This document shows positions 9,943-32,112 of a stretch of DNA of 64,000 nt, piece by piece. The translations under genes were made by a program, and so were the position numbers. The DNA is from Gemmatimonadales bacterium (GTDB lineage Bacteria; Gemmatimonadota; Gemmatimonadetes; Gemmatimonadales; GWC2-71-9): NCBI GenBank assembly GCA_036781225.1, contig DAIQBJ010000001.1, positions 1,389 to 65,388 on the forward strand, given 5' to 3'. Numbering within the stretch: the first letter of the stretch is position 1; each line of letters opens with the position of its first letter. The notes beneath the pieces are model-generated. The model was not told the origin of the DNA, made no database searches, and worked only from the letters and a program-made list of their open reading frames with translations.

Positions 9943-10578
9943 CTAAACCAGTTTTTCGAGGCCGGTGCGGGCGTTGACACGGCGCGTGATCTCGCGACGT
10001 CCGGCGGCAATCCGCTCCACGGCGTCGAGGCCCTGCGTTGCCTTCTCAATGAAATGCCGATCGTTGATGTCGCGAAGGTTGATGCGAGCGGTCAACGTCG
10101 ACGCCTCGACAACGGCATCCGCGAGCGCCGCCGCAACCGCGAGATCTCCTACCGTACTTACGCGGACGATATCGACGACCGAAGCACAGATTTCGAGGAC
10201 GCTCGCGGCGGCTCGCGCAGTCTCGATCGGCACGAGTGTCGCGCGTTGCAGAGCCCCCTGTTGGTGTGGTTCCCCTGGGTCGCTCGAGACGCGCCGCGCG
10301 TCAAGAAAGGCTTCATATGCCTCGATATCGTCGTGGATTAGCTTGCGTAATTGAACACGAAGCGCATCGGCCCGGTCGATGGCGCTCATGATGATCTTCT
10401 GGGACGGGGCGTGACGCGCCGTGACCCGGCATACCATCCCCACAAGCGCGGCCGCGGCCGCCCCCGTCAACGCTCCGGCAGCGCCGCCGCCGGGTGCAGG
10501 TCGATCACTTGCGAGGCCATCGAGAAACGATTCGACACTTTCGTTGGCACGTCCAGCGGTATCCATCCGGTCCTCCAT
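9943..10578 (-). CDS. Cyclodeaminase/cyclohydrolase family protein (FtcD C-domain / FchA-like methenyl-THF cyclohydrolase)
   Basis: 211 aa with [40 protein letters not shown], the hallmark N-terminal helix of this family. Its size matches stand-alone FchA-type proteins. Confidence 0.75.
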
Positions 10579-11955: not shown

Positions 11956-12143
11956 TTACGTCTGGCGAAATTAGCGAGAGAGACGACAACGTCCGAATCA
12001 GCGTCCGCGGTGTGAGCGCCGCACCACGCACACTCCACGATCGGCGACGCCAACGTATCGGGCCTCTCACACAGTGCGAACCCGCCAAGAGCGCGGGCGA
12101 GCGATTCACCGCAGTCGCATCCCGTGACCGATTCCCTCCGCAT
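11952..12143 (-). CDS. Possible small Cys-rich protein (63 aa)
   Basis: The ATG at 12143 lies 8 nt after the folB-like stop. The peptide MRRESVTGCDCGES...IVECAWCGAH has C-x-C and C-x2-C pairs, and third-position GC is high by eye. No recognisable family. Confidence 0.3.
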   Translation of the reverse strand: MRRESVTGCDCGESLARALGGFALCERPDTLASPIVECAWCGAHTADADSDVVVSLANFARRN

Positions 12144-12150
12144 GCGTGGT

Positions 12151-12528
12151 TTATCGGGAATCACGACTCGCCACGACCACAGCACCGACGTTCTTAGCCG
12201 ACGATAGTGCTCCGGGCTTCCAGACTTCGATCGCAGCTTTTTCGACCTCGTCGAACTCCGAGAGAATCGTGCGGCATAGATGGGTGGCAAGTGTCTCGAT
12301 CAACTGAAAGCTCGATTTTTCGCACTCGGCCATCACGCGCCTGGAGACGAGCCGATAGTCGATGCTGTCCTGAATAGCGTCCGACATCGCGACCCTGCCG
12401 AAGTCGACCTTCACCTTGAGATTGATCACGATGCGCTGCTTCGTCGCCCGTTCGCGGTCAGTCACTCCGATCGTGCACTCGACCTCGATGCCTTCGACGC
12501 AGAGCCACCCACCGAGTTCCAATGTCAT
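12151..12528 (-). CDS. folB: Dihydroneopterin aldolase family protein (FolB-like)
   Basis: 125 aa; GIEVECTIGVTDRERATKQRIVINLKVKVDF...SDAIQDSIDYRLVSRRV...IETLATHL...IEVWKPGAL parallels the FolB pattern. Its ATG overlaps the upstream stop (ATGA at 12525-12528). Confidence 0.7.
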   Translation of the reverse strand: MTLELGGWLCVEGIEVECTIGVTDRERATKQRIVINLKVKVDFGRVAMSDAIQDSIDYRLVSRRVMAECEKSSFQLIETLATHLCRTILSEFDEVEKAAIEVWKPGALSSAKNVGAVVVASRDSR

Positions 12529-13487
12529 ACCGCTTCCGAAAACAGTCGCGTGTCGAGGAGTTGACTTTCCTTCAGGCCGGCGATGGGTGCGAATGTCGCC
12601 GGCCATTGCTCAAACGCCTCCGCCGGGGCGCAGCCGACGAGTTCATACCCGCGGACAACGGCACCGAGTCGCTTTGCCTCATGCTCGAGATGTTCGCAGA
12701 CCGTTCGTGGGGACGTGAGCCGGTAGTCGAGTAGGTTCATGGACACCTGCGACAGTCCGCGGCTCGCAAGCAAAACACCCATCGCCTGCACTGCGGGAAG
12801 CCCTCCCGACGAGGCTCTAATGCGGCGTGAGATCGCGTCAGCCAGGGCGAGATCGTTACTTGTGAGCACCGCGTTGAACGCGATGAGCGGCCGCCGGGCG
12901 CCGACGACCGTCGCCCCAGCCGACGGGTGAGGCGCCGCGGGTCCCGCGTCGGGACGCCACCCCGGCGCGCACAGTCGCTCCGCAAGGCCTTCGAATCCAC
13001 CCTTTCGAACCACCGGCAGCTCGCGCCGGTTACGCCGAGCAGCCGCCTCGGCATAGAAGAACACGGGCACATCGAGCTCCGCCGCGAACGTCAAGCCAAC
13101 GCGGTGCGCCGAAGCGATCGCATCGCGCATGCTTGCCCCACGCAGGGGCACAAACGGAATCACGTCGATCGCGCCGATTCTCGGGTGAGCGCCTCTGTGC
13201 TTTGTGAGGTCGATACATTCCACGGCTGCACGGGCAAGGGCGAGGACAGAGCTTTCGACGGCGTCAGGGTCGCCAATCATCGTGAAAACGGACCGGTGAT
13301 GATCGACATCGCTGTGGACGTCGAGCAAAGTCGCTCCGCCATTGGTCACGGCATCCGCGAGACGAGCAATGACCCTGGCGTCGCGACCCTCGCTCACATT
13401 TGGCACGCACTCGAGCAACGGGCGTCCGGCTTCGTCCGCGACCGCCGTGATCTGATCGAGCGCGGATGCTCCGCTGTGCGGCGTCAC
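12525..13487 (-). CDS. Glutamate formimidoyltransferase (FtcD N-domain type)
   Basis: 320 aa with LLECVPNVSEGRD near the N-terminus, the formiminotransferase signature. Confidence 0.85.
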   Translation of the reverse strand: MTPHSGASALDQITAVADEAGRPLLECVPNVSEGRDARVIARLADAVTNGGATLLDVHSDVDHHRSVFTMIGDPDAVESSVLALARAAVECIDLTKHRGAHPRIGAIDVIPFVPLRGASMRDAIASAHRVGLTFAAELDVPVFFYAEAAARRNRRELPVVRKGGFEGLAERLCAPGWRPDAGPAAPHPSAGATVVGARRPLIAFNAVLTSNDLALADAISRRIRASSGGLPAVQAMGVLLASRGLSQVSMNLLDYRLTSPRTVCEHLEHEAKRLGAVVRGYELVGCAPAEAFEQWPATFAPIAGLKESQLLDTRLFSEAV

Positions 13488-13768
13488 GAGCCGCCTAATC
13501 CTCGCTCTCGGAAATCCGCAAACTTGGCTTCGAGCTCCTGGGCCACCGCCTTCGCGACATCGCCGGGGCTACCAGCACGCTCCTGCTCGTCGCCGTGTTC
13601 CCACTGATCGAGATATGCGTCGGTACCGGCCAGACCCAGACGCATTGCGACCGCGTCGATCAGCACCTGAAACCGGTCGCTCAGTTGAATTTTGGCGGTA
13701 CCGGTACCGTCGGAAGCCTCAACGACGGATGGAATGTCTTTCCAGTAAAGGACCTGATACTTGGCCAC
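13484..13768 (-). CDS. Small conserved hypothetical protein (94 aa)
   Basis: MAKYQVLYWKDIPSVVEA...LSDRFQVLIDAVAMRLGLAGTDAYLDQWEHG. It has a 4-nt overlap with the downstream gene. I vaguely associate this pattern with a small family found near cobalamin/CobW genes but cannot verify that. Confidence 0.55.
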   Translation of the reverse strand: MAKYQVLYWKDIPSVVEASDGTGTAKIQLSDRFQVLIDAVAMRLGLAGTDAYLDQWEHGDEQERAGSPGDVAKAVAQELEAKFADFRERGLGGS

Positions 13769-13779
13769 AAGTCGACCTC

Positions 13780-15459
13780 TCAGAAGAGTCCGACGACGTT
13801 CCCGTCGTCGTCGATATCAATGCCGAGAGCAGCGGGCTTCTTGGGCAAACCGGGCATCGTCAAGATGTCTCCGGCGTAAGCGACGACGAAACCCGCCCCC
13901 GCGCATAGCTTGACGTCACGAATCGTCACGGTGAAGCCAAGCGGGCGCCCTAGTTTTTTTGCATCGTCGGAGAGTGAGCTTTGAGTCTTGGCCATGCACA
14001 CGGGCAGCATTCCGTAGCCGAGCGTTTCGTACTTTGCCAATTTGGTGGCAGCGGCAGGAAGGATGTTCACACCGGCCGCACCATAGAGCTTCGTGGCGAT
14101 CGTCTCGATCTTTCGGCCGAGCCCCATGTTGTCGGGATAGAGTGTCCGAAACTGCGAGACTCCCTGGCGCTGCGTCGCTTCGAGGACGGCGTGAGCGAGC
14201 TCCTGACCACCGTCGCCCCCCAATTCCCACACGCGAGACATTCGGGCGGGAACGCCAAGCTTTTGACATGCGTCCAGTACGACCGCCACCTCACCGTCAG
14301 TATCGTGGCTGAAGTGGTTGAGGGCTACGACGGCCGGCACGCCGAACTGGCGAATGTTATCGACGTGTTTGCTGAGGTTGTCCATGCCCTTGAGGAGAGC
14401 CGCGACGTCGGGAACCCCAAGATCCTCCTTCTTGACCCCGCCATGCATTTTGAGCGCCCGAACGGTCGCGACAATAACGGCCGCCGCCGGCTTCAGCCCG
14501 CCGATTCGACACTTAATGTCGAAGAACTTCTCCGCACCGAGCTCTGTTGCGAAGCCAGCCTCGGTGACGACCACGTCACCGAGCTTTAGCGCCAGTCGAG
14601 TCGCCATGAGGCTATTGCAGCCATGGGCGATATTGGCGAAGGGGCCACCGTGCACGAACGCCGGTGTTCCCTCGAGCGTCTGTACGAGATTGGGCTTGAT
14701 CGCATCCTTCAGCAGCACGGTGAGAGCTCCCGCCACACCGACGTCTGCGACAGTGACGAAAGAGCCATCCGCTCGTTCAGCGACGATGATGCGACTGATC
14801 CGATTCTTCAAATCGTGAAGGTCACGAGCGAGACACAGAATCGCCATAATTTCCGAGGCGACTGTGATTTCGAATCCCGACTCGCGTGGCACTCCGTTCA
14901 CCGGGCCACCGAGTCCCAAGACGACGTTACGAAGAGCGCGATCGTTCATATCCAGGACGCGCTTCCAGCCGATTCGCCGACCGTCGAGACCGAGCTCATT
15001 ACCCTGGAAGATGTGGTTATCGAGGGTGGCGGCGAGCAGGTTGTGCGCCGAGGTGATCGCGTGAAAATCCCCGGTAAAGTGCAGGTTGATGTCCTCCATC
15101 GGCATCACCTGCGCGTAGCCGCCTCCGGCTGCCCCGCCCTTGATGCCGAAGCAGGGACCCAGCGACGGTTCACGGATCGCCACGATGGCGCGCTTTCCGA
15201 TCTTGCGAAACGCATCGGCGAGGCCGACGGTCGTCGTGGACTTGCCTTCGCCGGCAGGAGTCGGCGTCATTGCCGTCACGAGCACGAGCGCCCCGTCGTC
15301 ATTGGCCTGGAGGCGCTTGATCGCTTCCATGCGGATCTTTGCCTTGAACGGGCCATAGAACTCTAGGTCCTCGGCCTCGAGTCCCAGCGTCCCGGCGACC
15401 ACGTCGATGGGCTGCAGCTTGGCGTCATGCGCGATATCGATGTCGCTCTTGATCGTCAT
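13780..15459 (-). CDS. fhs: Formate--tetrahydrofolate ligase
   Basis: 559 aa from the ATG at 15459 ([18 protein letters not shown]...), with [17 protein letters not shown]-loop and [15 protein letters not shown] overlap with the upstream corrinoid-protein gene. Confidence 0.95.
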
Positions 15460-16133
15460 CGCGCGGCCGCTCGTTTGTCCTCGATCCACTGGCGGCAGAT
15501 CTTGACGGCTTCAGGCGCGTTCGCGCCATACGCATCCGTGCCGCATTCCTGTGCGAATTTGGCCGTGACGGGTGCCCCGCCGCAGATGATCTTGTACTTC
15601 TGACGGACGCCCATCTTCTCGAAGTGCTCGACAGTCTTACCGATGTTGGGCATCGTGACCGACAGCAGTGCAGACAGGCCGACGATGTCCGCTTGATGGG
15701 TCTCCGCTGCCTCGAGGATCTTCTCGGGTGTGTTGTTCACACCGATGTTGTGCACCTTGAACTGCGCGGCTTCGAGCAGCATGCAGACGAGATTTTTGCC
15801 GATGTCGTGAATGTCGCCTTTCACCGTACCGACAACCGCGACGCCGACCGTTTCGGTGACCGTGCCGACGATCAGGGGCCGCAAGAGGGCCATCGATCCG
15901 TTCATCGTCCGCGCGGACAGCAGCACTTCCGGGATGAAGTACTGGTTCGTGCGGAAGAGCTCGCCGACGACGTCCATGCCGGGCACCAGTCCTTCGTTGA
16001 TGACGAGGTGCGGGTTGATGCCCTGATCGATTCCCTGCTGGGTGAGCGCCGTACCGTCTTTCACCTGGCCCTTGATGACCGTGAAGGCCAGCTTTTCGAG
16101 CAGCGTTCTCTCATCCATCTTCGTGTCGCTCAC
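15456..16133 (-). CDS. Corrinoid (B12-binding) methyl-carrier protein, copy 1
   Basis: 225 aa with an N-terminal helical cap plus a Rossmann-like B12 domain carrying the DxHxxG motif ([15 protein letters not shown]) and SALLSVT. Confidence 0.9.
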
Positions 16134-17347
16134 AGTTTGATGGGGTAGGTGCCGAATTCCTTCCCCGCGTCGTACATGGCCTTGATGTTCCGGAAGGGGA
16201 TATCGGGCAGCATCCGATGCGCAGGCGACAGGATATAGCCACCGCCGGGCGCCATCTCCTTGATGCGCTGTCGCACTTCCTGGCGCACGTCCTCCGGCGT
16301 TCCTCGCGGCAACGTCGACTGGACGTTGATGCCACCGAGAAAGCCGATCTTATGGCCGAAGTCCTGCTTCAAACGCCACGGCTCGGAGATGACCTCGACA
16401 GGCTGTAGAGGATCGAAGATCTGCATGCCGTCTTCGACGAGGCCATTCATCATCGGATAGGCCGCGCCGCATGAGTGGTACATGATTTTGCACTCGGGGT
16501 TCCCGACCTCTTCGAGCATGCGGCGCACCTCGTGAAACCGCCGCTTGTAGTAGGGTCGGACCAGATCCTCGTGAATCTGGGGCGACACAAGCGTGCTCGT
16601 CTGTGTTCCCAGGTCTTCCGGCGACAAGCGAACAATGTCGAGGTACTTGCCGACGGCCTGGATGCCGACCCGGTTCATCTCTAGTTCGATGTCCAGCAGC
16701 TTGGTGAAAAGCGCGTGGACAAAATCCTGGTCGATCGCCATGTCGATGAAAATCTGCTCGAAGCCGCGGAGATATTTGCCCTGCTCGTAGATTCCGCCTC
16801 GCCCGAATTGCGACAGAATCGCGTACGGCGTTTCCTTCCGAATGCGCGGAATGAGATCCGGCAAATCGCCCAGGAAGGACGGGTCATGCGGGTCAGGCCA
16901 CGGATAATCGTCGAGGTCCTTGATGGTCGCCTCAGCAAGCGGGTAGATGCGAATCTCGAAGTGGGCGCCGCCGTATCCTGTCTCGAACTCTGCCCGGTGG
17001 TGGGGCACGCCCCACTCGTCCACGTAGAGATCGTCTTCCGGGCGATGGACGAAGCCGCGGCCGCCATTCGGCGGGTAGCTTGGAATACGGATGATGTCGA
17101 GCTCCAGCTTCTCGATCACGTCGAGGTCGACCGGGGCGTCGGTCGACCAGGTCGTCGATCCCGTGCGGATGGCGTTCGGCGTGTTCTGCCAGTCCCACGG
17201 CTTCGAGACCTTCGGCGGCAGCCCCAGTTCGCGTCGGAGAGCCACGTAGGAGTCCTGCGTGATCCAGATGTCGCGAGGAACACGGTCCGGCTCGCGTAGT
17301 GCGATCGCCGCCTTTACCCGCTCCCGTGAGGTCATCGTCTTCGGCAT
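16130..17347 (-). CDS. URO-D superfamily (MtaA/MtvB-like) corrinoid-dependent methyltransferase, copy 1
   Basis: 405 aa; N-terminal SRERVKAAIALREPDRVP, HSCG motif (KIMYHSCGAAY) and GGGYILSPAH near the C-terminus. Translationally coupled to corrinoid protein 1. Confidence 0.75.
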   Translation of the reverse strand: MPKTMTSRERVKAAIALREPDRVPRDIWITQDSYVALRRELGLPPKVSKPWDWQNTPNAIRTGSTTWSTDAPVDLDVIEKLELDIIRIPSYPPNGGRGFVHRPEDDLYVDEWGVPHHRAEFETGYGGAHFEIRIYPLAEATIKDLDDYPWPDPHDPSFLGDLPDLIPRIRKETPYAILSQFGRGGIYEQGKYLRGFEQIFIDMAIDQDFVHALFTKLLDIELEMNRVGIQAVGKYLDIVRLSPEDLGTQTSTLVSPQIHEDLVRPYYKRRFHEVRRMLEEVGNPECKIMYHSCGAAYPMMNGLVEDGMQIFDPLQPVEVISEPWRLKQDFGHKIGFLGGINVQSTLPRGTPEDVRQEVRQRIKEMAPGGGYILSPAHRMLPDIPFRNIKAMYDAGKEFGTYPIKL

Positions 17348-17363
17348 CGTGTCCCCCGTGTTG

Positions 17364-18008
17364 CTAGATGACGTCCTTCATTTGACGCGCGATACGCATC
17401 ACGTAGTTCCGCATCGTGAGTTCCGACGCTTCGGCATCGCGCCGCACCAGCGCCTCGATCAATTCCTGGTGCTCGTGGACTGTTTCGCGCAGGCCGCCCT
17501 GCTTGCGGTAGAGGAAGTACCAGAGACGTAGATGGAGGTTATAGAGCTTGCTGAGAGCGTCCTCCACATAACGGTTCTGTGCGCCGCGGGCGAGCAATGC
17601 ATGGAAAGCTCGGTCCTGCGTGACGAACGTGTCGATGTCGATTTCCGTTGCTGACCGATCGAGTGCGGCGTGGATCTTCTGCAGCTCCTCGATCTGCTCT
17701 GCCGTCATCCGCGACGCCGCCAGGCGCGCGGCAAATCCCTCGATCTCGGCACGGAATTCGTTGATCTGCTGAACCTCGGCAGCGCGGATCTCGGCAACCA
17801 GCATTCCGCGATGGTGAAGATGAGTGACGAGCCGCTCGACGATCAGCCGCTGGATAGCCTCGCGGATCGGCGTCCGACCGATCCTCAGCTCTTGCATGAG
17901 GCGACTCTCCGTCAGCACGGAGCCGGGCTGCAGCTCCAGAGTGACGATCTTGTCGACGAGGACGCGGTAGGCCTTATCGGTCAGCGACGCGTGTGCGCGG
18001 GTCTTCAC
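17364..18008 (-). CDS. GntR family (FadR/FCD-type) transcriptional regulator
   Basis: 214 aa; wHTH ESRLMQELRIGRTPIREAIQRLIVERLV followed by an all-helical FCD-like C-domain. Embedded mid-operon with a 4-nt overlap to the upstream gene. Confidence 0.85.
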   Translation of the reverse strand: MKTRAHASLTDKAYRVLVDKIVTLELQPGSVLTESRLMQELRIGRTPIREAIQRLIVERLVTHLHHRGMLVAEIRAAEVQQINEFRAEIEGFAARLAASRMTAEQIEELQKIHAALDRSATEIDIDTFVTQDRAFHALLARGAQNRYVEDALSKLYNLHLRLWYFLYRKQGGLRETVHEHQELIEALVRRDAEASELTMRNYVMRIARQMKDVI

Positions 18009-18916
18009 GACCGCCTCGTCCGTCCCAGCGTCTCGGCGATGGCGGCACGATCCGGTTCCCCGCTGCTGATGAACACCATGGTCGGTGGCCGCGTCCCCGG
18101 CGCCGGCGTGATCTCGAGCTGACCGGCGGCGAACTGCACCGTCGCGAGTTGCCCGTCGATCGTCATGAATCCTTTTGCTCTAAGGATCTCGGACGGCAGT
18201 GACGCGAAGAATCGTTCTACGGCGGCGCGATCAGCATCGAAGGCCGTCGGCACCACGAACGAAACGAACGAGGCCGCCGGCGCCGGCGAAGCAAACCCTT
18301 GGTCCAGAGCGCTCGGCTCAGGCACGCGCCTCTCTCCATCGAGAACCATATCTAGCTCCACGTTGCAGCGCTCGGCTGTCACGACCGTCGCCTTGGAATT
18401 CAGCCCGGCTACGTCTCGGCGGACCTCCTCCAGCCGCGAGCCATGGCTCAGGTCGGTCTTGTTGAGAATCACCACGTCGGCCCGCCGCACCTGTTCCGTG
18501 AAAAACTCGCCGAGCACCCTTCGCAGGCCCGCGAACTTTGCGCTATCCACCACGGTGACGACCGGGCCGAGCTCGACCGAGCCCTGCAGGCTTGGATCAC
18601 TGAGGACCTCGAGGAGCTCGCCGGGCTGTGCGACGCCGGTCGCCTCGATCACCACCCGCTTCACGCCTCGCGTGTCGCGCAGCTCCTCGAGAGCGCCGAC
18701 GAGCGAACCCTTGAGCGTGCAGCAGAGGCAGCCAGCCGTGAGTTCGATCATGTTGACGTTGGTGCCTTCGAGCAGCGCCCCATCGATGCCGACGGCGCCG
18801 AACTCGTTCACGATCACGGCCATCGGCTCGGCGCCGGCACGCTCGCCGAGAATCCGTCGCACGAGTGTCGTCTTACCTGAGCCAAGGAAGCCGCAGATCG
18901 CGTTGACCCGCATCAC
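18005..18916 (-). CDS. COG0523/CobW-type G3E GTPase metallochaperone
   Basis: 303 aa with P-loop CGFLGSGKTTL, the metal-binding GCLCC motif and NKTD. Confidence 0.85.
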   Translation of the reverse strand: MMRVNAICGFLGSGKTTLVRRILGERAGAEPMAVIVNEFGAVGIDGALLEGTNVNMIELTAGCLCCTLKGSLVGALEELRDTRGVKRVVIEATGVAQPGELLEVLSDPSLQGSVELGPVVTVVDSAKFAGLRRVLGEFFTEQVRRADVVILNKTDLSHGSRLEEVRRDVAGLNSKATVVTAERCNVELDMVLDGERRVPEPSALDQGFASPAPAASFVSFVVPTAFDADRAAVERFFASLPSEILRAKGFMTIDGQLATVQFAAGQLEITPAPGTRPPTMVFISSGEPDRAAIAETLGRTRRS

Positions 18917-20793: not shown

Positions 20794-21176
20794 CAGACGA
20801 TGACTTTCCGAAATGGCCGGGGAGTCGTCGCCACCGCCACCACCCCGCCCGTCACTTGAACGTCGAAGACGTCGGCCTTGCCTTCGGGAAAATGACGGTA
20901 ATGGTATTCCGCGGTGGACTGATTGACGTGGCACGCCGTCGTAAGGGGGTTCAAACCCGTGCGCGCGGAATAGCGATAGCGACAGCGGGGGCAGGACACG
21001 GTCTCGCCGTCAAGGAGTGCGCCGTCCCAGTCACAGCCGCGATGCGGACAGGTCGGCTGCAGCGCATAGACCGCGTCACCGACGCGCGCGAGCAGCACGC
21101 GGAAGCCGTCTCGGACCGCGACCCGGGCGTGGCCGGCTGGAAGATCGTGGATGCCGACGAGTGGCACGAAGTCCAT
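20793..21176 (-). CDS. Rieske-like [2Fe-2S] domain protein with atypical ligand motif
   Basis: 127 aa from the ATG at 21176 (GGGAG SD inside the alternative start at 21188). The motif is TCPHRGCDWDGALLDGETVSCPRCRY, i.e. C-x-H-x16-C-x2-C instead of ...C-x2-H. Confidence 0.7.
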   Translation of the reverse strand: MDFVPLVGIHDLPAGHARVAVRDGFRVLLARVGDAVYALQPTCPHRGCDWDGALLDGETVSCPRCRYRYSARTGLNPLTTACHVNQSTAEYHYRHFPEGKADVFDVQVTGGVVAVATTPRPFRKVIV

Positions 21177-21178
21177 GG

Positions 21179-21889
21179 TTACTCCCATGCTTCGCGCGGC
21201 TCTTTGACGAGCCGCTTGGCGAGCTGCACGGCGAGCATGGCGTCCTTGCCCCAGCCGTCGGCGCCGATCTCATCCGCCCACTGCTGGCTGGTCGGCGCTC
21301 CTCCGACGAGAATCTTGACCTTGCTGCGCAGCCCGGCTTTTGCGAACTCCTCAATGGTGACTTTCTGATAGTAAATGGTCGTCGACAAGAGCGCGGAGAA
21401 ACCAACCAAATCGGCCTTCTCGCGTTTCGCAGCGTCGATGAATTTGTCGGGATGCGTATCGGTGCCGAGGTTGATGACACGGAAGCCGGCATTCTCGAGC
21501 ATGATCGTCACGATCGTCTGACCGATGTCGTGCATGTCGCCGAGGACCGTGCCGATGATGAAGGTACCGACCGGTTTCTCGGCGGCGGCGGCGAGCAGCG
21601 GGCGGATGAGGGCGAGCCCGGTCTTCATGGCCCGTGCGGTAATGAGCATTTCCGGGATGAAGATGATCTGCTCACTGAAGCGATCGCCCTGGAGGTTGAA
21701 ACCGGGAAACAAGCCGTCATCGAGGATCGTCTTCGGATTGATGTTCGCGTCGATCGCCTTCTGGACGATCTCGTGCGCGATCTTGTGTTTGCCCTTCTCG
21801 ATGGCCACCCACAGGTCGCTCCAATCCCAGCCGGCGGGAACGCGTGACTGCCACCCGTCGGGGATCTGAAGCGTCGGTACGTTTCCCAT
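21179..21889 (-). CDS. Corrinoid (B12-binding) methyl-carrier protein, copy 2
   Basis: 236 aa with DxHxxG (GTVLGDMHDIGQTIV), SALLSTT and GGAPTSQQWADEIGADGWG. Confidence 0.9.
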   Translation of the reverse strand: MGNVPTLQIPDGWQSRVPAGWDWSDLWVAIEKGKHKIAHEIVQKAIDANINPKTILDDGLFPGFNLQGDRFSEQIIFIPEMLITARAMKTGLALIRPLLAAAAEKPVGTFIIGTVLGDMHDIGQTIVTIMLENAGFRVINLGTDTHPDKFIDAAKREKADLVGFSALLSTTIYYQKVTIEEFAKAGLRSKVKILVGGAPTSQQWADEIGADGWGKDAMLAVQLAKRLVKEPREAWE

Positions 21890-21901
21890 GCCTCGGTTCT
21901 C

Positions 21902-23071
21902 CTAGTTGAGCGGGTACTTGCCGTAGACGCCGTAGTCCTTGACCGCCTCGAGCATGGCGAAGATGTTCTGCACCGGGACGTCGGCCAGGATGTAGTGCGC
22001 GGGCGAGAAAATGTAGCCGCCACCCGCGGCAAGATTCTTCATCACGTTGAGAACGCCTTCCCGCACCTCCTCGACCTGTCCCCGCGGGAGCAGGCGTTGC
22101 ACGTCGAGGCCGCCGATCATGGCGATCTTGTCGCCAAACTTCTTCTTCATTCCTGCCTGGTCTCGGTTCCCGCCCACCGGCTGCATGAGCCCGGTCAGGT
22201 TCACGCCGAGGTCGACCTCGTCCTGCATGATCGGCGAGTAGTCGCCGCACGAATGGAACTTGAGATAGACGTCCTTGTTGACCTTCCTGAACTGCTCGAA
22301 CATATAGGCGAAGCGTGGCTTGGCCAGCTCGCGCCATGAATCCGGATCGAACATCATCCCCTGCTGGGAGCCGATGTCATCGCCGACGCGGATCAGGTCA
22401 ACGCCGAGCGCTGCCACGTTCTTGCCGAGGGCGGTGTAGTACTCGGTGAGTCCGTCCAGGACGCCGGCAATCAGCTCGGGTTCGTCGTAGATGTACAGGA
22501 AGAAATTCTGCGTGCCGACGAGATGCGCGTAGGCCGCCTCGATCAGCGTGGACGACAGGTCGACCATGATGAAGTAATCGTCCTGCCACTTCTTGCAAAT
22601 CTCTTTGATCGGGTCGAGCAATCGCGGATTAGCAGGATCGGGCCACGTGTAGTTCTTTAGGTCTTCCATCGATGTAATTGGGTGATGTTTGGGAAAGTTC
22701 TCCGGCACCACCTTTGCGGGCCCCCAGAACTCCTGGGTCTTTTCGAACTCCTTGTGTTGCTCCTCGGTCATTCCCTGCAGGCCGCTTTTGCCATAGCCGA
22801 CCTTGAAATCGCTGTACCACGTCTCGCCGATAGCGATGGGATGATGCGAGAATTCGGCGTTGATCCCGATCTGATACATGATCGCGTCGTTACCGAGCCG
22901 AAGCTCGAGCGATGGGTCGTGCTTCATGCCGGTGCCCGTGCCGTGGATTCCGAAGATGCGCGCCACCTTCTCTTTCGATTCCTTCTTGAAGCGATACAGC
23001 GTCGGCACCCGGTCGACCTTCTCGCGCCGGATTGCTCGTGCAAATCGTTCCCGAGGCCTCAGTTCGGCCAT
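21902..23071 (-). CDS. URO-D superfamily (MtaA/MtvB-like) corrinoid-dependent methyltransferase, copy 2
   Basis: 389 aa; PRERFARAIRREKVDRVP, LKFHSCGDYS, GGGYIFSPAH. A divergent paralogue of 16130-17347. Confidence 0.75.
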   Translation of the reverse strand: MAELRPRERFARAIRREKVDRVPTLYRFKKESKEKVARIFGIHGTGTGMKHDPSLELRLGNDAIMYQIGINAEFSHHPIAIGETWYSDFKVGYGKSGLQGMTEEQHKEFEKTQEFWGPAKVVPENFPKHHPITSMEDLKNYTWPDPANPRLLDPIKEICKKWQDDYFIMVDLSSTLIEAAYAHLVGTQNFFLYIYDEPELIAGVLDGLTEYYTALGKNVAALGVDLIRVGDDIGSQQGMMFDPDSWRELAKPRFAYMFEQFRKVNKDVYLKFHSCGDYSPIMQDEVDLGVNLTGLMQPVGGNRDQAGMKKKFGDKIAMIGGLDVQRLLPRGQVEEVREGVLNVMKNLAAGGGYIFSPAHYILADVPVQNIFAMLEAVKDYGVYGKYPLN

Positions 23072-23101
23072 CGCCGTCCTCCTTGTTCCGACCGTCGCAT
23101 C

Positions 23102-24076
23102 CTAGAAACCAAGCAGACGCCGGCGCTCACGGCCGGACGCCGCGATGTGCTCGGGCGTAGATCCACAGCAGAAGCCGACGAGATGCGCTCCGGCTTCGAC
23201 GAGCTGCTCGAACCGCGCCGCGGCGAATTCGGGGTCCTCGTAGGCCATGGTGGCCATGACCTGCGAGTTCGGCTTGGCCGAGACGAAGGTCCGACCGGTG
23301 AGGTCGTGCTCGGCGAAGTAGCGGCTGAACTCCCGCGTCACCACCACTGCGTCGTCCACACCGATGGTGCAATTCGCGCCGACGATATCTACGCCGAGCG
23401 CCGTAGCACCGACGAAGGGACGTTCCGCGAGCAAATCGTCGTTGCCCTCCATGATGTTGCGCACGGTGTCGCCGAAAAATGTTCGGAACGCCGCATCACT
23501 GCCGGCCGGTCGGTTCATAAAGGCGAATGTCGTGTAGATCGGAATGCTGACGCCTTCATCGGCGAACACGGTGCGCGCCGCCTCGACGGCGACCTGGCCC
23601 TCGAGCGACTGCAGCATCGTTTCGACGCAAATAGCATCAACTCCCGCACGGACAAGGGCTCTGATTTGCGCGAGCATCGACGCCATCACTTCGTCGTACG
23701 TGGCCGACTGGCCGATGATCTTCCCGGTCGGGCCGACATTGCCTCCGACGAACACCTCGCGTTCTGTCTCGGTCGCAACCTCACGCAGGAGCTTCACGCC
23801 CGCGGCATTGAAGCGATCCGCTGCCTCCGGCTCCATGTGGAACTCGGCGAGGCGCAGTGGCGTGCTATTGAAGGTGTTCGTGAGGACCAGATCGGCACCT
23901 GCCGCGATCTTGGCCCGGTAGAGCTCACGGACGACGTCCGGCGTGGTGATGTTGTACTGGTCGCAGCACTCGCCCCCGACATGCGTCACGCCGAGACGCT
24001 GCTGAAACCACGTCCCCGTGGCGCTATCGCTCAGCAGCGGCGTCCGCGATGTCAGACGTGCTAACAGCCTGCTCAC
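23102..24076 (-). CDS. Homocysteine-type Zn-dependent S-methyltransferase domain protein (MetH Hcy-module-like, stand-alone)
   Basis: 324 aa; ...ADLVLTNTFNS..., VGANCTIG and HLVGFCCGSTPEHI (the Zn-binding Cys / Cys-Cys pattern of PF02574-type enzymes). Confidence 0.8.
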   Translation of the reverse strand: MSRLLARLTSRTPLLSDSATGTWFQQRLGVTHVGGECCDQYNITTPDVVRELYRAKIAAGADLVLTNTFNSTPLRLAEFHMEPEAADRFNAAGVKLLREVATETEREVFVGGNVGPTGKIIGQSATYDEVMASMLAQIRALVRAGVDAICVETMLQSLEGQVAVEAARTVFADEGVSIPIYTTFAFMNRPAGSDAAFRTFFGDTVRNIMEGNDDLLAERPFVGATALGVDIVGANCTIGVDDAVVVTREFSRYFAEHDLTGRTFVSAKPNSQVMATMAYEDPEFAAARFEQLVEAGAHLVGFCCGSTPEHIAASGRERRRLLGF

Positions 24077-24086
24077 CCCCCCGCCC

Positions 24087-25064
24087 TCACGGCTTCTTAC
24101 TCCGGTGGTAAGCGAGGTAGTTCAGCGAGTATTCGTCCTTACCCATGAGGGCCTCGGCGGCGAGCTTGAATTCTAGACACTCCTTCGGCGAATTCATCAG
24201 CGGATCGGCCATGAGTGTGTCGCAGCCGGCGAGAATCGACAGGATAAGGAAAGCGTTATTGAGGACACGACGGTCAGGCAGTCCAAAGGAGACATTGGAG
24301 TGTCCACCGAAGATGTGCACATCGGGAAACATCTCGCGCAGCTGCTTGACGGCGTCGAGATAGTGCATGCCGAATTCCGGTCCCGCGCCAACCGGGAAGA
24401 CGAGAGCATCGAGGAAGCGATCTTCCATCGGAATGCCGTGCTCGTCCATTTGCTTCGAGAGCTCCGTGAGGTGATCGACACGCTCCTGCGCGCTGTACGG
24501 CATGCCGGAACGGCCTGACGCGTTGCCCGCGAGATAGGCGTTGTACTCCTTGGCCATCGCGTGCAGGACGTTGCGCCCTTCTTCGAGGTTTACCGAGTTG
24601 ATGAAGGGCCGACTCTTCTTCGGGTCGTGCACCTTCAGCCCCGCCTCGATGGTGTGTGGATCCGACGAGTCGATGCTAACGATTGCGTCGGTCATGCCCT
24701 GGACCGTCTGGACGATCCAGGCCATCCATTCCTTGCGCTGCTCCGGATACGGCGACATCTCATCCACGCAGAGATCGATGATGTGGGCCCCCGCCGTCAG
24801 CTGCGAGTGGACTGCAGTCTCCAGATATTTGAGGTCCTTGTTCCGAAAGCACTGCCCGACGTACGGGATCATCGCGTTGGCGTGCTCTTTCGGGTCCTCT
24901 GGGAAGGCGTCCGTCAGATCGAGTAGCCGCTTGGTCCCGGATGTGTCGTTATAAGCGAGGCCGCGCTTCTCGCCATCCTTGAGGATGCGCGGGCTGGAGC
25001 CCTTGATCTTGCGGGTGGCGTTGAGATTTTCGCCGATGACGATCAGACCCTGATGCTCGATCAT
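24087..25064 (-). CDS. Pterin-binding methyltransferase (methyl-THF:corrinoid, MetH pterin-module / AcsE / MtrH-like)
   Basis: 325 aa with N-terminal LIVIGENLNATRKI and a TIM-barrel-length body with DLCVDE. Both neighbours are C1-THF genes. Confidence 0.75.
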   Translation of the reverse strand: MIEHQGLIVIGENLNATRKIKGSSPRILKDGEKRGLAYNDTSGTKRLLDLTDAFPEDPKEHANAMIPYVGQCFRNKDLKYLETAVHSQLTAGAHIIDLCVDEMSPYPEQRKEWMAWIVQTVQGMTDAIVSIDSSDPHTIEAGLKVHDPKKSRPFINSVNLEEGRNVLHAMAKEYNAYLAGNASGRSGMPYSAQERVDHLTELSKQMDEHGIPMEDRFLDALVFPVGAGPEFGMHYLDAVKQLREMFPDVHIFGGHSNVSFGLPDRRVLNNAFLILSILAGCDTLMADPLMNSPKECLEFKLAAEALMGKDEYSLNYLAYHRSKKP

Positions 25065-26638
25065 GCCCCGCTTCCTTTCGGTCGGATGTCACGCAGACGG
25101 ATCACGGCCGGATCGTCGCCTCGGAAGTGATTCGTCCATGAGCAGGTCCCGCGCTTTGCGGCGTCGACGCTCGGGATGAGGACGTCTTCGAGGTCTAGGA
25201 GGCGGCCCGTATCGCGTGCGATCCGGTATTTCTGATTGTGGATGCACTCGCGATCCCCGAACTCGCACACGTTCTCGGTGGTGCCGCCGCATGGCCCGTT
25301 CGCAAGCCCCTTCGGGCACGTCTCGGGGCACACATAGGCCGTGTGTGGCAGGCGGCAGAATCCGCACGTCTGGCAGCCGACCAGCGGTTCCTTGACGCGC
25401 TGCTCGACCCAGCGGAGCCCGCGCTCGACCGTCGAACCGCGCGGAATCAGCCGCGCCAAAGGCTTTAAAACAATCGTCGCGGGAGAACCCTCTGCGAAAA
25501 CGAGGCGGTCGAGCCGATCAAGGCGCCGGAACTTTTCGACCTCCGCGCTCGGCGTCTCCGGACCACGAAGGTAGCGCATTGTGAGAGCATCGTTGGCAAC
25601 GTTCCATCCGCCCGGCTCCGCCAGCTCATGAAACAGGTAGTACGGTTGAGGAGCGGTGACGGTAGGAGCGCCGTAGGGTCCGCGCAGCGCGTGCCACCAT
25701 GCGTCCCACCAGGCGCCCTCGTTCGCCAGACCCCGCTCGAGCCCATCGACTTGTTGCATGAGCCGGTCGAGTTTGTCGAACTGGTGCATTCCGGTGAGTT
25801 GGAAACCCGCGAAGCCGAGTCGCTTGTAGCCAACGATCTGCAGCGCGAGGCGGCGATAGGCAGCACCGATGCCCTTGTCGGGCTGAGCAGCCTCGGCCTC
25901 CAGTCTCGCTTGGAGATCGTCCGTGATCGTGATTCCGGCGAGCTTGTTCGCGCGAATGTAGCGTGCGCGAGCAACAGTGAGCAGCATCACTCCCGCCATG
26001 ACCGGTGCCGTGAGGCCTCGCCGACGACGGTAAGCCATCAGCTCCTTGGCCTTCAGCATGTCCCATCCGACCTGCGTGATGAATGCATCGGCGCCGGCGC
26101 GCTCCTTCTTCGCCATCTTCAAGTACTGGTTCATCGATTCTTCTTCGCGATACTTGAATGGCGAGACGGCGGCGGCGATCGTCATGGCCGGTTCGGCTGC
26201 GCGAACCTGGGCGACCATGTTGACCGAATCGTAGTAGTGAACCGGACGTCCCGAAGGCGCCGTACGAACTTTGTCGCCTGTGACGAGCAGCGTGTTGTCG
26301 AGGCCGTTATCGCGCATTCGCGTGAGCGCCTCAGCGACCCAGACGGCGTCGCGGTCCTTCCCCGAAAGGTGGACGATCGGCACTTTGCCGCAGGCCTCGG
26401 CCACGCGCGCTGCGACGCGGACGGGGTCGTGGTCGTAATCGGATTTCACACGATCGGTGAGCGCGATCGTGTCGAAGCGCCCATCCGCCTTGATGTGCTC
26501 GGCCAGCTCGGTGACAGGCGCGATGGCCGACTCAAACGCCTCGTGCGCTTCTGGCGTGACATACTCGATCGAAGCGACGAATTGTCGCCGCTCGAGTCGT
26601 CGTCGCAACACGTTGTCGTGACCGGCGTCGTCCATCAA
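25061..26638 (-). CDS. Methylenetetrahydrofolate reductase (MetF-like) fused to a C-terminal MetV-type Cys-rich domain
   Basis: 525 aa. The N-terminal ~300 aa is MTHFR-like (VASIEYVTPE..., LLVTGDK, AFITQVGWD). The C-terminal ~100 aa carries CQTCGFCRLPHTAYVCPETCPKGLANGPCGG, the MTHFR-C/MetV signature. Confidence 0.75.
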   Translation of the reverse strand: MMDDAGHDNVLRRRLERRQFVASIEYVTPEAHEAFESAIAPVTELAEHIKADGRFDTIALTDRVKSDYDHDPVRVAARVAEACGKVPIVHLSGKDRDAVWVAEALTRMRDNGLDNTLLVTGDKVRTAPSGRPVHYYDSVNMVAQVRAAEPAMTIAAAVSPFKYREEESMNQYLKMAKKERAGADAFITQVGWDMLKAKELMAYRRRRGLTAPVMAGVMLLTVARARYIRANKLAGITITDDLQARLEAEAAQPDKGIGAAYRRLALQIVGYKRLGFAGFQLTGMHQFDKLDRLMQQVDGLERGLANEGAWWDAWWHALRGPYGAPTVTAPQPYYLFHELAEPGGWNVANDALTMRYLRGPETPSAEVEKFRRLDRLDRLVFAEGSPATIVLKPLARLIPRGSTVERGLRWVEQRVKEPLVGCQTCGFCRLPHTAYVCPETCPKGLANGPCGGTTENVCEFGDRECIHNQKYRIARDTGRLLDLEDVLIPSVDAAKRGTCSWTNHFRGDDPAVIRLRDIRPKGSGA

Positions 26639-26645
26639 GGTCCCC

Positions 26646-27263
26646 TTAAGTCGTCTGCAATACCCCGAAGAGGCCGGAAACAGACTTCTTCGGTGTCATA
26701 ACGCAGTACTCGCTGAGGCTCACCGGCAACGGTGCTCCGGCGAAGACAGAGAACAGGCCGGGCTGCTCGGTCAGAGCCCAGTCCATGAAGCCTGGCGCCA
26801 GCCTCGGACTAAGCCGCCGTCCCTTAGGCCGAAGATCCGCGGTGAGACGAGCGCGAAACTTTCGCAGCGCGTCCTCGATGGCCAACCATCCCGCGGTCTC
26901 GACGAAAAGCGCCTCCAGGAGCTCGTCCGACTCCGTCATCTCGGCGACGCGCGCATCCACGGCCGGGCCGATCGTGCACACGAAGCAGATGACTTCCGTG
27001 GCGTCCGCGAGATGCGTCTGGAAGCATCTTCCGTGAAACGTCGGGCCGCCGACGAGCCGCAAGGCGTCACGGTCGACTGAATCGACGGGCTGCTTGACGA
27101 AGACGACGTCGGGGACGGCGAGAGTCTCGACGAGGCGCAGCATGTCGCGCGCGACGTCACGGATCGCCGGAGCCACTTGGCTCAGGTCGCGGTAGCGCTG
27201 AAATCGCAAGACCGGATCGAGCTTTAGCTTCGGCGCCCCCGCGGCGAAACGCTCAACCGGCAT
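26646..27263 (-). CDS. Methionine-synthase activation-domain protein (SAM-binding reactivation module, stand-alone)
   Basis: 205 aa from the ATG at 27263 (MPVERFAAG...). ICFVCTIGPAVDARVAEM...ALFVETAGWLAIEDAL...LSPRLAPGFMDWALTEQPGLFSVF...MTPKKSVSGLFGV matches the MetH C-terminal module pattern. Confidence 0.75.
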   Translation of the reverse strand: MPVERFAAGAPKLKLDPVLRFQRYRDLSQVAPAIRDVARDMLRLVETLAVPDVVFVKQPVDSVDRDALRLVGGPTFHGRCFQTHLADATEVICFVCTIGPAVDARVAEMTESDELLEALFVETAGWLAIEDALRKFRARLTADLRPKGRRLSPRLAPGFMDWALTEQPGLFSVFAGAPLPVSLSEYCVMTPKKSVSGLFGVLQTT

Positions 27264-27369
27264 GGCCGGAATATACAACAAATATATTCTGTTTTCGCAG
27301 CCACGCTGCGGTACCACCCCGTTGGGGTCAGGTCGACTAAATATCCCAAGATCTAGGGCTTTCGGCCGA
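27264..27369 (-). promoter_or_regulatory. Putative promoter/operator of the corrinoid-THF super-operon
   Basis: This is the only >100-nt gap flanking the operon. It contains an AT-rich island with the inverted repeat GAATATA (27269-27275) - N7 - TATATTC (27283-27289), 6 nt from the ATG. No SD is visible. Confidence 0.45.
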
Positions 27370-31569: not shown

Positions 31570-31588
31570 TGTCGTTCCTCCTGGATAA

Positions 31589-32110: not shown

Positions 32111-32112
32111 GG

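Follow-up and report, generated by a model that had tools for sequence, protein, structure and literature searches.

In Ruegeria, Phaeobacter and Sinorhizobium, MtgC and MtgD serve both a split methionine synthase (with MtgE) and the glycine-betaine methyltransferase MtgB, and MetF2 and RamA act alongside MtgBCDE (PMC12478193, PMC5764234). Here we analyse a gene cluster of related composition in a 64,000-nucleotide stretch of DNA (the window) from a Gemmatimonadales bacterium (NCBI GenBank assembly GCA_036781225.1, contig DAIQBJ010000001.1, positions 1,389 to 65,388). The cluster comprises 16 minus-strand genes running from 27263 to 12151, and is an uncharacterised, widespread and probably laterally transferred corrinoid methyltransferase module, built on a URO-D family methyltransferase with a predicted His-Cys-His metal site. 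An earlier sequence-only reading of this DNA took the union of split MetH modules with additional methyltransferases to be its unusual feature; that principle was already published for MtgBCDE. What is new here is that a URO-D-based corrinoid module is tied to the arsenite oxidase genes aioBA, an aquaglyceroporin-type channel (MIP family) and a PsrA-like molybdoenzyme.

Judged by analogy, MtgBCDE is the closest described system in logic. Common to both are free-standing corrinoid, pterin and homocysteine modules, a RamA/RACo-type activase, a dedicated MetF paralogue for the oxidation of methyl-tetrahydrofolate (CH3-THF), and occurrence in aerobic bacteria; in MtgBCDE one corrinoid/pterin core serves both a catabolic donor and methionine synthesis, the likeness of the modules being one of domains. 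The substrate methyltransferase is MtgB (MttB superfamily, PF06253), acting on glycine betaine, in that system, whereas two URO-D enzymes are found here. In addition, a DUF1638 protein there is matched by a TM0269-like protein here, and only the present cluster includes CobW, a second corrinoid protein and an MTHFR of MetF-MetV fusion type, and is linked to aioBA, MIP, molybdoenzyme and ars genes.

The methanogen systems (MtaA, MtbA and MtsA, with MtmBC, MtbBC, MttBC and RamA) likewise combine separate substrate methyltransferase/corrinoid protein pairs converging on one second methyltransferase with ATP-dependent activation, and UROD1, the first of the two URO-D proteins, is matched best by MtaA (4AY7) in both sequence and fold. 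The acceptor is coenzyme M in methanogens and is predicted to be THF, via a pterin methyltransferase, here; the metal sites are His-Cys-Cys and His-Cys-His, respectively, NCBIfam cut-offs are missed widely (85 against 235 bits), and the hosts here are bacteria, many of them aerobic. The OdmABCD/MtvABC, CdmBCA and CmuAB systems resemble the cluster in consisting of a UroD-superfamily substrate methyltransferase (MT-I), a corrinoid protein, a second methyltransferase (MT-II) acting on THF and an activating enzyme and in passing the methyl group into the THF one-carbon (C1) pathway; the Cmu clusters also include MetF2. They differ in having no arsenic or molybdoenzyme linkage, CmuA is a fused methyltransferase-corrinoid protein, and the URO-D proteins here have no detectable sequence match to the solved CdmB/O-demethylase MT-I enzymes.

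In the type 1 mlp clusters (Kountz & Balskus, PMC10418091), a metalloid (selenium) was also proposed as the (de)methylated atom from genomic context. Those clusters are confined to obligate anaerobes; they encode no THF methyltransferase, and their metal sites are His-Cys-Cys. The present cluster is set apart by its THF and homocysteine methyltransferases, His-Cys-His site, arsenic context and hosts that include aerobes. ArsM and ArsI, both encoded in the window, share the arsenic methyl theme, with arsenite as substrate or product that would then be oxidised by Aio, but differ in chemistry and protein family; ArsI requires O2 and acts only on trivalent monomethylarsenite, MAs(III), or aromatic arsenicals. 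The split MetH of Thermotoga maritima (TM0268/TM0269) also has a stand-alone reactivation protein, TM0269; among solved structures, only that of TM0269 (1J6R) is homologous to the product of the cluster's first gene. The partner of TM0269 there is a three-module MetH, whereas the modules here are fully separate and an additional RACo is present. By these features the cluster is neither Cmu, Cdm or Odm nor an MtaA/MtbA equivalog, and it is predicted not to be of type 1 mlp. A literature search found no published description of this cluster or of any link between aio genes and corrinoid methyltransferases.

The 16 genes (all on the minus strand) are packed with gaps of no more than 30 nt; the intergenic distances from 27263 down to 12151 are 10, -4, 10, 30, 12, 2, -1, -1, -4, 16, 11, -4, 11, -4 and -4 nt, using the start sites of independent gene callers on identical soil-metagenome contigs. 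A cluster identical to 27263-12151 is present on soil and rhizosphere metagenome contigs. We infer co-transcription of the 16 genes as one operon from this packing, since no promoter or terminator signal above chance lies inside the block: a scan of 11.5-29.5 kb gave counts at or below shuffled expectation and is uninformative on operon limits. An Rfam scan of the whole window detected no RNA family, including cobalamin and SAM (S-adenosylmethionine) riboswitches.

The first gene encodes a 205-aa stand-alone MetH reactivation-domain protein (26646-27263). It has no Pfam match at E<0.001 and a weak Met_synt_B12 match (E=0.018), but a profile of 28 orthologues matches T. maritima TM0269 (PDB 1J6R) over its full length (E=9e-12, positions 12-219 of 225). 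The protein carries the motifs RxxPGF/Y and PKxSxSGLFG, and whole-domain homology and the SAM-site motifs RxxxGY and PxxSxSG place it in the TM0269 family, with SAM binding predicted. The profile match to 1J6R rules out DUF1638 as its identity, and PF07796 (DUF1638) has no match among the window proteins scanned against Pfam. The next gene encodes a 524-aa methylenetetrahydrofolate reductase (MTHFR) with a MetV-type C-terminal fusion (25061-26635; Pfam MTHFR at residues 11-253 and PF12225 at 411-486). The MTHFR catalytic domain and MetV thus occur in one protein, as in MetFV-type enzymes, and the direction of the reaction is a prediction; in proteobacterial loci a non-orthologous MTHFR-like gene takes the place of the fusion. 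It is followed by a pterin-binding methyl-corrinoid:THF methyltransferase, the MT-II of the system (24087-25064, Pfam Pterin_bind), scoring 208 bits on the AcsE/MeTr-type model and 90 bits on MetH (NCBIfam), with orthologues of 50-63% identity in 53 loci, and by a homocysteine-type Zn(Cys)3 S-methyltransferase (Hcy-MT; 23102-24076, Pfam S-methyl_trans, 154 bits) with the Zn-Cys3 motifs GANCTIG and GFCCGSTPEHI.

UROD1 (389 aa, 21902-23071, Pfam URO-D) is followed by corrinoid protein 1 (21179-21889, Pfam B12 cap and B12-binding domains, DMHDIG), whose orthologues (71-80% identical) adjoin UROD1 in 60 loci. Then come a Rieske-type [2Fe-2S] ferredoxin (20793-21176, Pfam Rieske), a RACo/RamA-type ATP-dependent reductive activase (18913-20793), a COG0523/CobW metallochaperone GTPase (18005-18913, Pfam cobW and CobW_C, GCLCC), and a GntR/FCD transcription regulator (17364-18008, Pfam) which ends the core module. 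The activase is complete with Fer2, linker, middle and ASKHA domains (Pfam Fer2, RACo_linker, Raco_middle and RACo_C_ter) and scores 441 bits on the AcsV-type NCBIfam model. A second pair follows, consisting of UROD2 (405 aa, 16130-17347, Pfam URO-D, HSCG...SxxH) and corrinoid protein 2 (15456-16118, Pfam and NCBIfam, DIHDIG), which is ~41% identical to corrinoid protein 1. On MtgC/MtbC-type models the two corrinoid proteins score 182 and 177 bits, against 120 and 145 bits on MetH (NCBIfam). The array ends with formate-THF ligase (Fhs; 13780-15459, Pfam FTHFS, 870 bits), a 94-aa PF13769 protein (13484-13768, Pfam), a formiminotransferase (12525-13487, Pfam FTCD_N and FTCD) and FolB (12151-12528, Pfam).

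At the level of domains the operon is shown to encode a three-component corrinoid methyl-transfer system with two substrate-side methyltransferase/corrinoid protein pairs: substrate methyltransferase, corrinoid protein with cap and DxHxxG motif, THF methyltransferase and ATP-dependent activase lie in one array. The parts of a split methionine synthase are likewise present as separate PF02574, PF00809 and PF02607+PF02310 proteins with a DUF4445/RACo activase. By their domains, the single pterin methyltransferase is predicted to deliver the methyl of CH3-Co(III) to THF, and the single Hcy-type enzyme could deliver it to homocysteine. Repair to Co(I) is predicted to be ATP-dependent via RACo, with support from the Rieske ferredoxin, and the TM0269-like protein probably adds SAM-dependent cofactor repair. 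CobW, the MetF-MetV-type MTHFR and the downstream THF C1 enzymes would complete the set.

These assignments agree largely with those of the sequence-only reading. Its run of minus-strand ORFs with gaps of at most ~30 nt is borne out for 16 genes on recomputed junctions, the profile searches it called for were run and confirm each of its domain calls in Pfam and NCBIfam, and the motifs it quoted (IGENLNATRK, GANCTIG, GFCCGSTPEHI, GDMHDIG, GDIHDIG and GCLCC) were all located. Its description of the first gene as a MetH-activation-domain protein holds, as do its statements that all four MetH-type modules are free-standing, that two extra URO-D methyltransferases are present, each with its own downstream corrinoid protein, and that RACo, CobW and the THF C1 genes lie in one packed array. 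The term disassembled MetH is apt for the domains and misleading for ancestry, the corrinoid and pterin modules scoring higher on methylotroph-type/AcsE models than on MetH. An optional 17th ORF (11952-12290) is probably not a gene, because it has no family hit and overlaps the FolB end, and the count of 16 stands; the co-directional block is longer than had been stated, extending from ~55930 to 12151. The interpretation is therefore only partly supported: the union of split MetH modules is less novel than it claimed, and the decisive arsenic context escaped it.

The two URO-D proteins were placed by profile scores and PDB matches. As the sequence-only reading held, they are not HemE: on the HemE model TIGR01464, UROD1 scores 23.7 bits (cut-off 303) and UROD2 has no hit, and the UROD1 profile gives 45 bits on MtaA and 26 bits on HemE. 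The earlier label MtaA-type is imprecise. The best solved relative of UROD1 by sequence is indeed MtaA (PDB 4AY7/4AY8), and an AlphaFold2 model of UROD1 (pLDDT 74, pTM 0.81) has MtaA 4AY8 as its top fold match. However, both proteins stay below every MtaA/MtbA/CmuA cut-off (on the NCBIfam mtaA_cmuA subfamily model, with a cut-off of 235 bits, UROD1 reaches 85 bits and UROD2 46 bits), and one of the zinc ligands is changed. UROD1 and UROD2 are 29-31% identical and have in common an invariant HSCG...S-x-x-H signature (H273/C275/H359 in UROD1, H291/C293/H377 in UROD2); in the alignment to MtaA, the HxC pair falls on zinc ligands, and the third ligand is changed from Cys to His (His359 in UROD1, His377 in UROD2). 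His273/Cys275/His359 is thus the predicted metal site of UROD1. His-Cys-Cys sites have been assigned to S/Se methyltransferases and carboxylate-substituted sites to O-methyltransferases (PMC10418091), and the predicted His-Cys-His site fits neither type. UROD1 has no sequence match to the solved CdmB/O-demethylase-type MT-I. In tblastn searches of pCMU01 and cmu clones, its likeness to CmuA/CmuC extends over 39-53% of the query at 26-27% identity, and this partial identity, together with the separate encoding of methyltransferase and corrinoid protein, rules out a CmuA/CmuC identity. In PLSDB no plasmid carries a close relative of UROD1.

The UROD1 family is sharply delimited, all members having 389 aa and 70-77% identity, with the nearest relatives at 86-94%. 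It was found in 80 GTDB species of the Rokuibacteriota, the Alpha-, Beta- and Gammaproteobacteria and one Acidimicrobiia metagenome-assembled genome (MAG), including Arenicellales, Acidiferrobacterales, Hyphomicrobiales/Methyloligellaceae/Anderseniella, Paracoccaceae, Rhodospirillales and Burkholderiales/Usitatibacter; the nearest genomes (UROD1 86-94% identical) are Candidatus Rokuibacteriota/Methylomirabilia MAGs, and none of the carriers found is a cultured organism. Core components were counted over 67 loci (ORFs were clustered and cluster representatives scanned), and neighbours within 10 kb were scanned over 80 loci. UROD1 is present in all 67, followed by the corrinoid protein (60), RACo (56), the pterin methyltransferase and the TM0269-like protein (53 each), CobW (52), GntR (47), the PF13769 protein (41), an MTHFR-like gene (40), a 179-aa protein of unknown function (36) and the MIP channel (27). 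The core is PF13769, TM0269-like protein, pterin methyltransferase, URO-D methyltransferase, corrinoid protein, RACo, CobW and GntR. UROD2 with corrinoid protein 2, Fhs, formiminotransferase, FolB and the Rieske protein joins this core only in Rokuibacteriota. Hcy-MT is missing from most related loci (the PF02574 gene occurs in 16 of 80, sometimes within the aioBA operon), and UROD1 is the most conserved gene. Glycerate kinase accompanies the cluster in 18 loci.

The ~179-aa protein always adjoins the MTHFR-like gene in proteobacterial loci (e.g. L046, 6488-7027, and 35 other loci; related loci carry L numbers). It has an invariant Cys63, several Trp and Arg residues and a GP..G motif, and has no counterpart in the window. 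Tested as a possible equivalent of the MetV part of the fusion in the window, it showed neither a Pfam or NCBIfam hit nor a motif rich in Cys, and nothing in the window matched it. The Rieske gene of the window (20793-21176) has tblastn matches confined to Rokuibacteriota loci, and small Rieske or Fer2 genes unrelated to it recur in L016, L042, L096 and L097. In alphaproteobacterial islands, a PrmA/CpaM-like SAM-dependent methyltransferase (9 loci; e.g. L063 1111-1794, L052 19959-20669 and relatives) and a hemopexin-repeat protein (7 loci) also recur.

An arsenic module is encoded in the window on the same strand as the operon. It includes an upstream ArsR (~54341-54682, tblastn), the C-As lyase ArsI (53857-54336; NF041414, 129 bits, cut-off 116), AioB (52696-53184; TIGR02694, 160 bits, cut-off 96), AioA (50179-52686; TIGR02693, 997 bits, cut-off 359), a periplasmic pentapeptide-repeat protein with a signal peptide (49175-50182), the MIP channel (48279-49178) and a second ArsR (47716-48177). 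AioA aligns over its full length with solved AioA structures (8RTM/1G8K, 783 bits) and keeps the His/Glu/Arg/His residues of the arsenite site, which we take to be His195, Glu203, Arg419 and His423 in Alcaligenes faecalis numbering (Ellis et al. 2001). With both subunits above their cut-offs, the site residues conserved and a twin-arginine translocation (TAT) motif (TRRHF) in AioB, arsenite oxidase activity is predicted; the full-length equivalog score and the arsenite-site residues disfavour iodate reductase (IdrA) for the AioA-like gene. ArsI scores above its cut-off and has a vicinal Cys pair in NCCHANQDKFW, but the model also covers CadI, leaving its substrate uncertain. The SAM-dependent arsenite methyltransferase ArsM (2575-3456, plus strand; NF008823, 365 bits, cut-off 263) is located ~9 kb past the downstream end of the operon. 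With ArsM and ArsI, the two known arms of the arsenic methyl cycle are thus represented in the window beside the corrinoid system.

The sequence-only reading had treated the arsenite oxidase as an incidental trait of the host; comparative genomics shows that no other feature of the locus is as informative. Of 80 loci, 23 have an AioA orthologue (66-78% identical) no more than 10 kb from UROD1, 24 have AioB, 20 the pentapeptide protein and 31 MIP (54-83% identical) within that distance. Seen from the AioA side, all three arbitrarily chosen homologues (80, 77 and 73% identical) share the UROD1-core neighbourhood, and at least 9 of the 120 closest AioA homologues are on contigs that agree in length with UROD1-carrying contigs. 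In L025 and L035, aioB-aioA-penta-MIP-PF13769-TM0269-like-pterin-UROD1-CP-RACo-CobW-GntR (penta, pentapeptide protein; CP, corrinoid protein) are strung together in a single co-directional array whose gaps do not exceed 226 nt. In L081 and L084, GntR is followed by MTHFR-aioB-aioA-penta-MIP, and in L072 and L089 a SAM-dependent methyltransferase, the 179-aa protein, MTHFR, aioB, aioA, the pentapeptide protein, MIP and Hcy-MT form one array with overlapping stops and starts, which runs divergent from the methyltransferase genes. A MIP orthologous to that beside aioBA is found in the methyltransferase operon even where aioBA is absent. Several UROD1 loci also contain ArsD (104 bits, cut-off 90), which is not among the arsenic genes of the window, together with ArsR, and in the Arenicellales loci L026, L028 and L030 an ArsI-like VOC protein, MIP and ArsR lie inside the methyltransferase cluster and replace the usual MIP. 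Because different arrangements in different classes always join the same parts, this recurrent joining points to selection for co-regulation rather than chance co-carriage. The pentapeptide protein (49175-50182, minus strand, and 20 related loci) is always located between aioA and MIP, usually with overlapping stop and start; we know of no report that places it in aio operons.

Several features suggest that the arsenic/C1 block was laterally acquired, namely a step in GC content (0.59-0.66 across 1-56 kb, rising to 0.66-0.71 at 56-64 kb), a resolvase-like ORF at 7336-7941, and high cross-phylum identities, the AioA, MIP and UROD1 of the window being 66-83% identical to their proteobacterial orthologues.

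Between the arsenic module and the operon, the window encodes a 696-aa PsrA/PhsA-like molybdoenzyme (40986-43076), a 4Fe-4S subunit with four clusters (40468-41136) and a NarI-like membrane subunit (39661-40458), all on the minus strand (Pfam, NCBIfam). The best PDB match of the molybdoenzyme is Thermus PsrA (2VPW, 305 bits, full length), with the Cys ligand of Mo aligned. It has no twin-arginine signal and misses every equivalog cut-off, and the membrane subunit is NarI-like rather than NrfD-like. The missing signal and the four-cluster iron-sulfur and NarI-like partners suggest a distinct, cytoplasm-facing subgroup of the PsrA/PhsA/ArrA group. Orthologues (53-56% identical) are located within 10 kb of the UROD1 core in ~13 loci, and in the Rokuibacteriota locus L011 an orthologue of 91% identity directly abuts the TM0269-like gene. 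In other phyla UROD2 relatives (41-51% identical) adjoin the molybdoenzyme and a corrinoid protein. The Arenicellales loci L093/L094 (7271-14286) have the order molybdoenzyme, iron-sulfur subunit, UROD2-like protein, corrinoid protein, NarI-like membrane subunit and CSD protein. In a Nitrospirae-like MAG (L091, 2175-11849), the molybdoenzyme occurs with DUF1638 (next to the UROD2-like gene), a second URO-D gene and two corrinoid proteins, and Sox genes are found near the UROD2-like gene. In L097 a UROD2-like/corrinoid/membrane module that lacks the molybdoenzyme and iron-sulfur genes is present beside the aioBA module and UROD1 core.

The molybdoenzyme is separated from the operon by a ~12 kb block (27370-39600, minus strand) encoding an AMP-dependent CoA ligase, an NMT1-type ABC transporter, a thiolase-like protein with a DUF35/ChsH2 OB protein, an enoyl-CoA hydratase, an MFS transporter and a second ABC transporter. 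This block is probably an insertion and not part of the system, because it is absent from L011.

We tentatively favour, at somewhat short of an even chance, a pathway that demethylates methylated arsenicals, passing their methyl groups to THF or homocysteine, and leaves the freed arsenite to be oxidised by AioBA; that the substrate is an arsenical, which way the methyl moves and what the molybdoenzyme does are all inferred. In the proposed mechanism, a pentavalent methylarsenical, e.g. DMAs(V) (dimethylarsenate) or MAs(V) (monomethylarsenate), would enter the cytoplasm. Co(I) would attack the methyl carbon, the methyl leaving as CH3+ and As(V) departing as As(III), in reversal of a Challenger methylation step. 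Removal of the first methyl, by UROD2 and corrinoid protein 2, would turn DMAs(V) into MAs(III), which the cytoplasm-facing PsrA-like molybdoenzyme may re-oxidise to MAs(V); in an alternative order, the molybdoenzyme would reduce pentavalent species. The last methyl would go to UROD1 and corrinoid protein 1, so that MAs(V) yields As(OH)3, which may exit through the MIP channel and be oxidised by periplasmic AioBA. The methyl groups would enter THF and be oxidised by MTHFR, followed by further oxidation, assimilation (through Fhs and serine hydroxymethyltransferase (SHMT), or glycerate kinase in Arenicellales) or use in methionine. The corrinoid system would then form one half of a laterally mobile arsenic island. 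The more specific proposal of a 'reverse Challenger' pathway, with stepwise B12/THF demethylation of pentavalent methylarsenicals alternating with molybdoenzyme re-oxidation, the cytoplasmic PsrA-like enzyme acting on MAs(III) and periplasmic AioBA on arsenite, and C-As cleavage free of O2, is on balance doubtful.

In methanogen methylamine systems, two MT-I/corrinoid-protein pairs converging on one MT-II form a catabolic layout. The same convergence on one THF methyltransferase here favours demethylation over methylation, and glycerate kinase (in the 18 loci mentioned above) or the Fhs and SHMT of the window are what one would expect if the methyl carbon is oxidised or assimilated. How DMAs is demethylated has been stated to be unclear, with corrinoid methyltransferases suspected (PMC10579292), and methylcobalamin and arsenite exchange methyl groups chemically (PMC6950371).

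A number of observations weigh against demethylation of arsenicals. The main one that does not fit an arsenic reading is a sulfur-oxidation context: in L019, L021, L022 and L040, all from Arenicellales, GntR is immediately followed (~16.8-20.9 kb) by AprM-AprB-AprA-like genes, identified by their N-terminal sequences alone. In 22 Arenicellales loci the MIP channel is present with no aioBA within 10 kb, and in the window itself the aio module is ~20 kb and the molybdoenzyme ~12 kb from the operon, with transport and CoA-ligase genes between. The regulator in the cluster is GntR/FCD rather than ArsR, and UROD1 has a single invariant Cys, without the Cys pair or triad typical of trivalent-arsenic binders. 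For the demethylation of MAs(III) and the methylation of As(III), the window already has ArsI and ArsM. Methylarsenicals occur in traces and would be poor growth substrates. Every related locus is a MAG, and gene neighbourhood fixes neither the direction of methyl flow nor the substrate. Finally, whole-cell work with methanogens points to trivalent DMAs(III) as the demethylated form (PMC10579292), which is a misfit with a chemistry in which As(V) is the leaving-group precursor.

Among the rival explanations, a small, neutral or acidic non-arsenical methyl donor such as a methyl halide, methanethiol or dimethyl sulfide, methanol, or a methoxylated or methylthio acid is rather unlikely. The operon would then be a methylotrophy module doubling as a split methionine synthase, and the arsenic genes would be co-carried on a mobile island. 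MtgBCDE is a precedent for such a dual catabolic/MetH role, URO-D methyltransferases are known for halomethanes, thiols and methoxy-aromatics, and regulators of the GntR/FCD type usually sense carboxylates. The Arenicellales loci without nearby aioBA also fit, as do the CoA ligase, thiolase-like protein with DUF35, enoyl-CoA hydratase and ABC transporters directly upstream in the window, although this block is missing in L011. Passive co-carriage, however, predicts none of the single arrays in which aioBA-penta-MIP is fused with MTHFR, Hcy-MT and methyltransferase genes in several arrangements and classes, nor would it account for an aioBA-type MIP inside the methyltransferase operon even without aioBA; the low CmuA/CmuC identity (26-27%) and the lack of a sequence match to solved O-demethylase/Cdm-type MT-I also speak against this reading. 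Arsenic chemistry in the opposite direction, a Challenger pathway with B12 in place of SAM, shares all of the arsenic-island evidence. MTHFR would make CH3-THF, the pterin methyltransferase would load the corrinoid proteins, a URO-D or the Cys3 Hcy-type methyltransferase would methylate As(III)/MAs(III), and the molybdoenzyme would reduce MAs(V), DMAs(V) and trimethylarsine oxide (TMAsO) between methylations. MtaA and MtbA, the nearest characterised URO-D relatives, do move a methyl from CH3-Co to an acceptor, enzymes of the PsrA/DMSO-reductase family (DMSO, dimethyl sulfoxide) are typically reductases, SHMT and Fhs can supply C1 units, and methylcobalamin methylates arsenite chemically and is discussed as a donor in methanogens (PMC6950371). 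We nevertheless consider SAM-independent methylation from methyl-THF clearly unlikely, given two dedicated corrinoid proteins with a single THF-side methyltransferase, which is the catabolic layout, the presence of ArsM in the window, the lower economy of placing a periplasmic arsenite oxidase on one transcript with enzymes that use up arsenite in the cytoplasm, and the occurrence of glycerate kinase (serine-cycle assimilation) with the cluster.

A further rival has methylated S/Se oxy-compounds (methanesulfonate, dimethylsulfone, DMSO or methylseleninate) as donors, with the leaving groups sulfite, sulfinate or selenite handled by the PsrA/SoeA-like cytoplasmic molybdoenzyme. Polysulfide/thiosulfate reductase is the closest relative of this molybdoenzyme, in which Mo is bound by Cys. 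Four Arenicellales loci have AprMBA genes behind the cluster, L091 has Sox genes close to its UROD2-like gene, and there is precedent for URO-D methyltransferases in Se/S metabolism (PMC10418091). Such donors would leave aioBA, ArsD, ArsI and ArsR unexplained, and the predicted His-Cys-His metal site is unlike the His-Cys-Cys of S/Se methyltransferases, making this explanation improbable. A housekeeping split methionine synthase with repair and folate genes, in which the URO-D proteins are accessory or redundant, is less probable still and comes close to being dismissible. Each MetH module does have a gene of its own, and RACo and a TM0269-like protein accompany them as they do in known split systems, but Hcy-MT is absent from most related loci while UROD1 is the most conserved gene, methionine synthesis has no need of two URO-D/corrinoid pairs or an MTHFR-MetV fusion, and the whole block looks laterally acquired.

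Methylated arsenic, dimethylarsenate in particular, governs how toxic arsenic is in rice paddies and gives rise to straighthead disease; demethylation in soil has been measured, but the sole known enzyme is ArsI, which acts on trivalent monomethylarsenite only and requires O2, and none is known for DMAs (PMC10579292). An island joining B12/THF methyl transfer to arsenite oxidase is a concrete, clonable candidate for this missing demethylation chemistry, or alternatively for the equally unresolved cobalamin-dependent methylation of arsenic. If true, the 'reverse Challenger' pathway would yield carbon, methionine methyl groups and respiratory electrons from methylated arsenic, and would provide the long-sought enzymology of DMAs/MAs demethylation together with a new biological use of arsenite oxidase. 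The cluster also extends the catabolic use of split MetH-type modules in aerobic bacteria to a new His-Cys-His methyltransferase family, and extends the split-module principle into soil, groundwater, sediment and marine-symbiont lineages. Conserved partners are now defined, namely the PF13769 protein, the 179-aa protein, the periplasmic pentapeptide protein and the cytoplasm-facing PsrA-like molybdoenzyme.

The downstream end of the operon is flanked by genes for SHMT (10612-11955, plus strand, Pfam) and an FTCD_C cyclodeaminase/cyclohydrolase-type protein (9943-10578, minus strand, Pfam), and a family scan detected two ArsC-like low-molecular-weight phosphatase genes further along (4046-4627 and 6663-7139). 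A Liv-type (Peripla_BP_6) ABC transporter (43146-47708, minus strand) is encoded between MIP/ArsR and the molybdoenzyme; it has the same position in L095 (14896-19494), and in L097 (20702-22490) it is located beside the UROD2-like gene. That it imports an amino-acid-like organoarsenical, e.g. arsenobetaine or arsinothricin, is pure speculation. In the high-GC flank (57584-61728, plus strand), an unrelated caprolactamase/hydantoinase-like alpha and beta pair is found (516 and 294 bits, below cut-offs).

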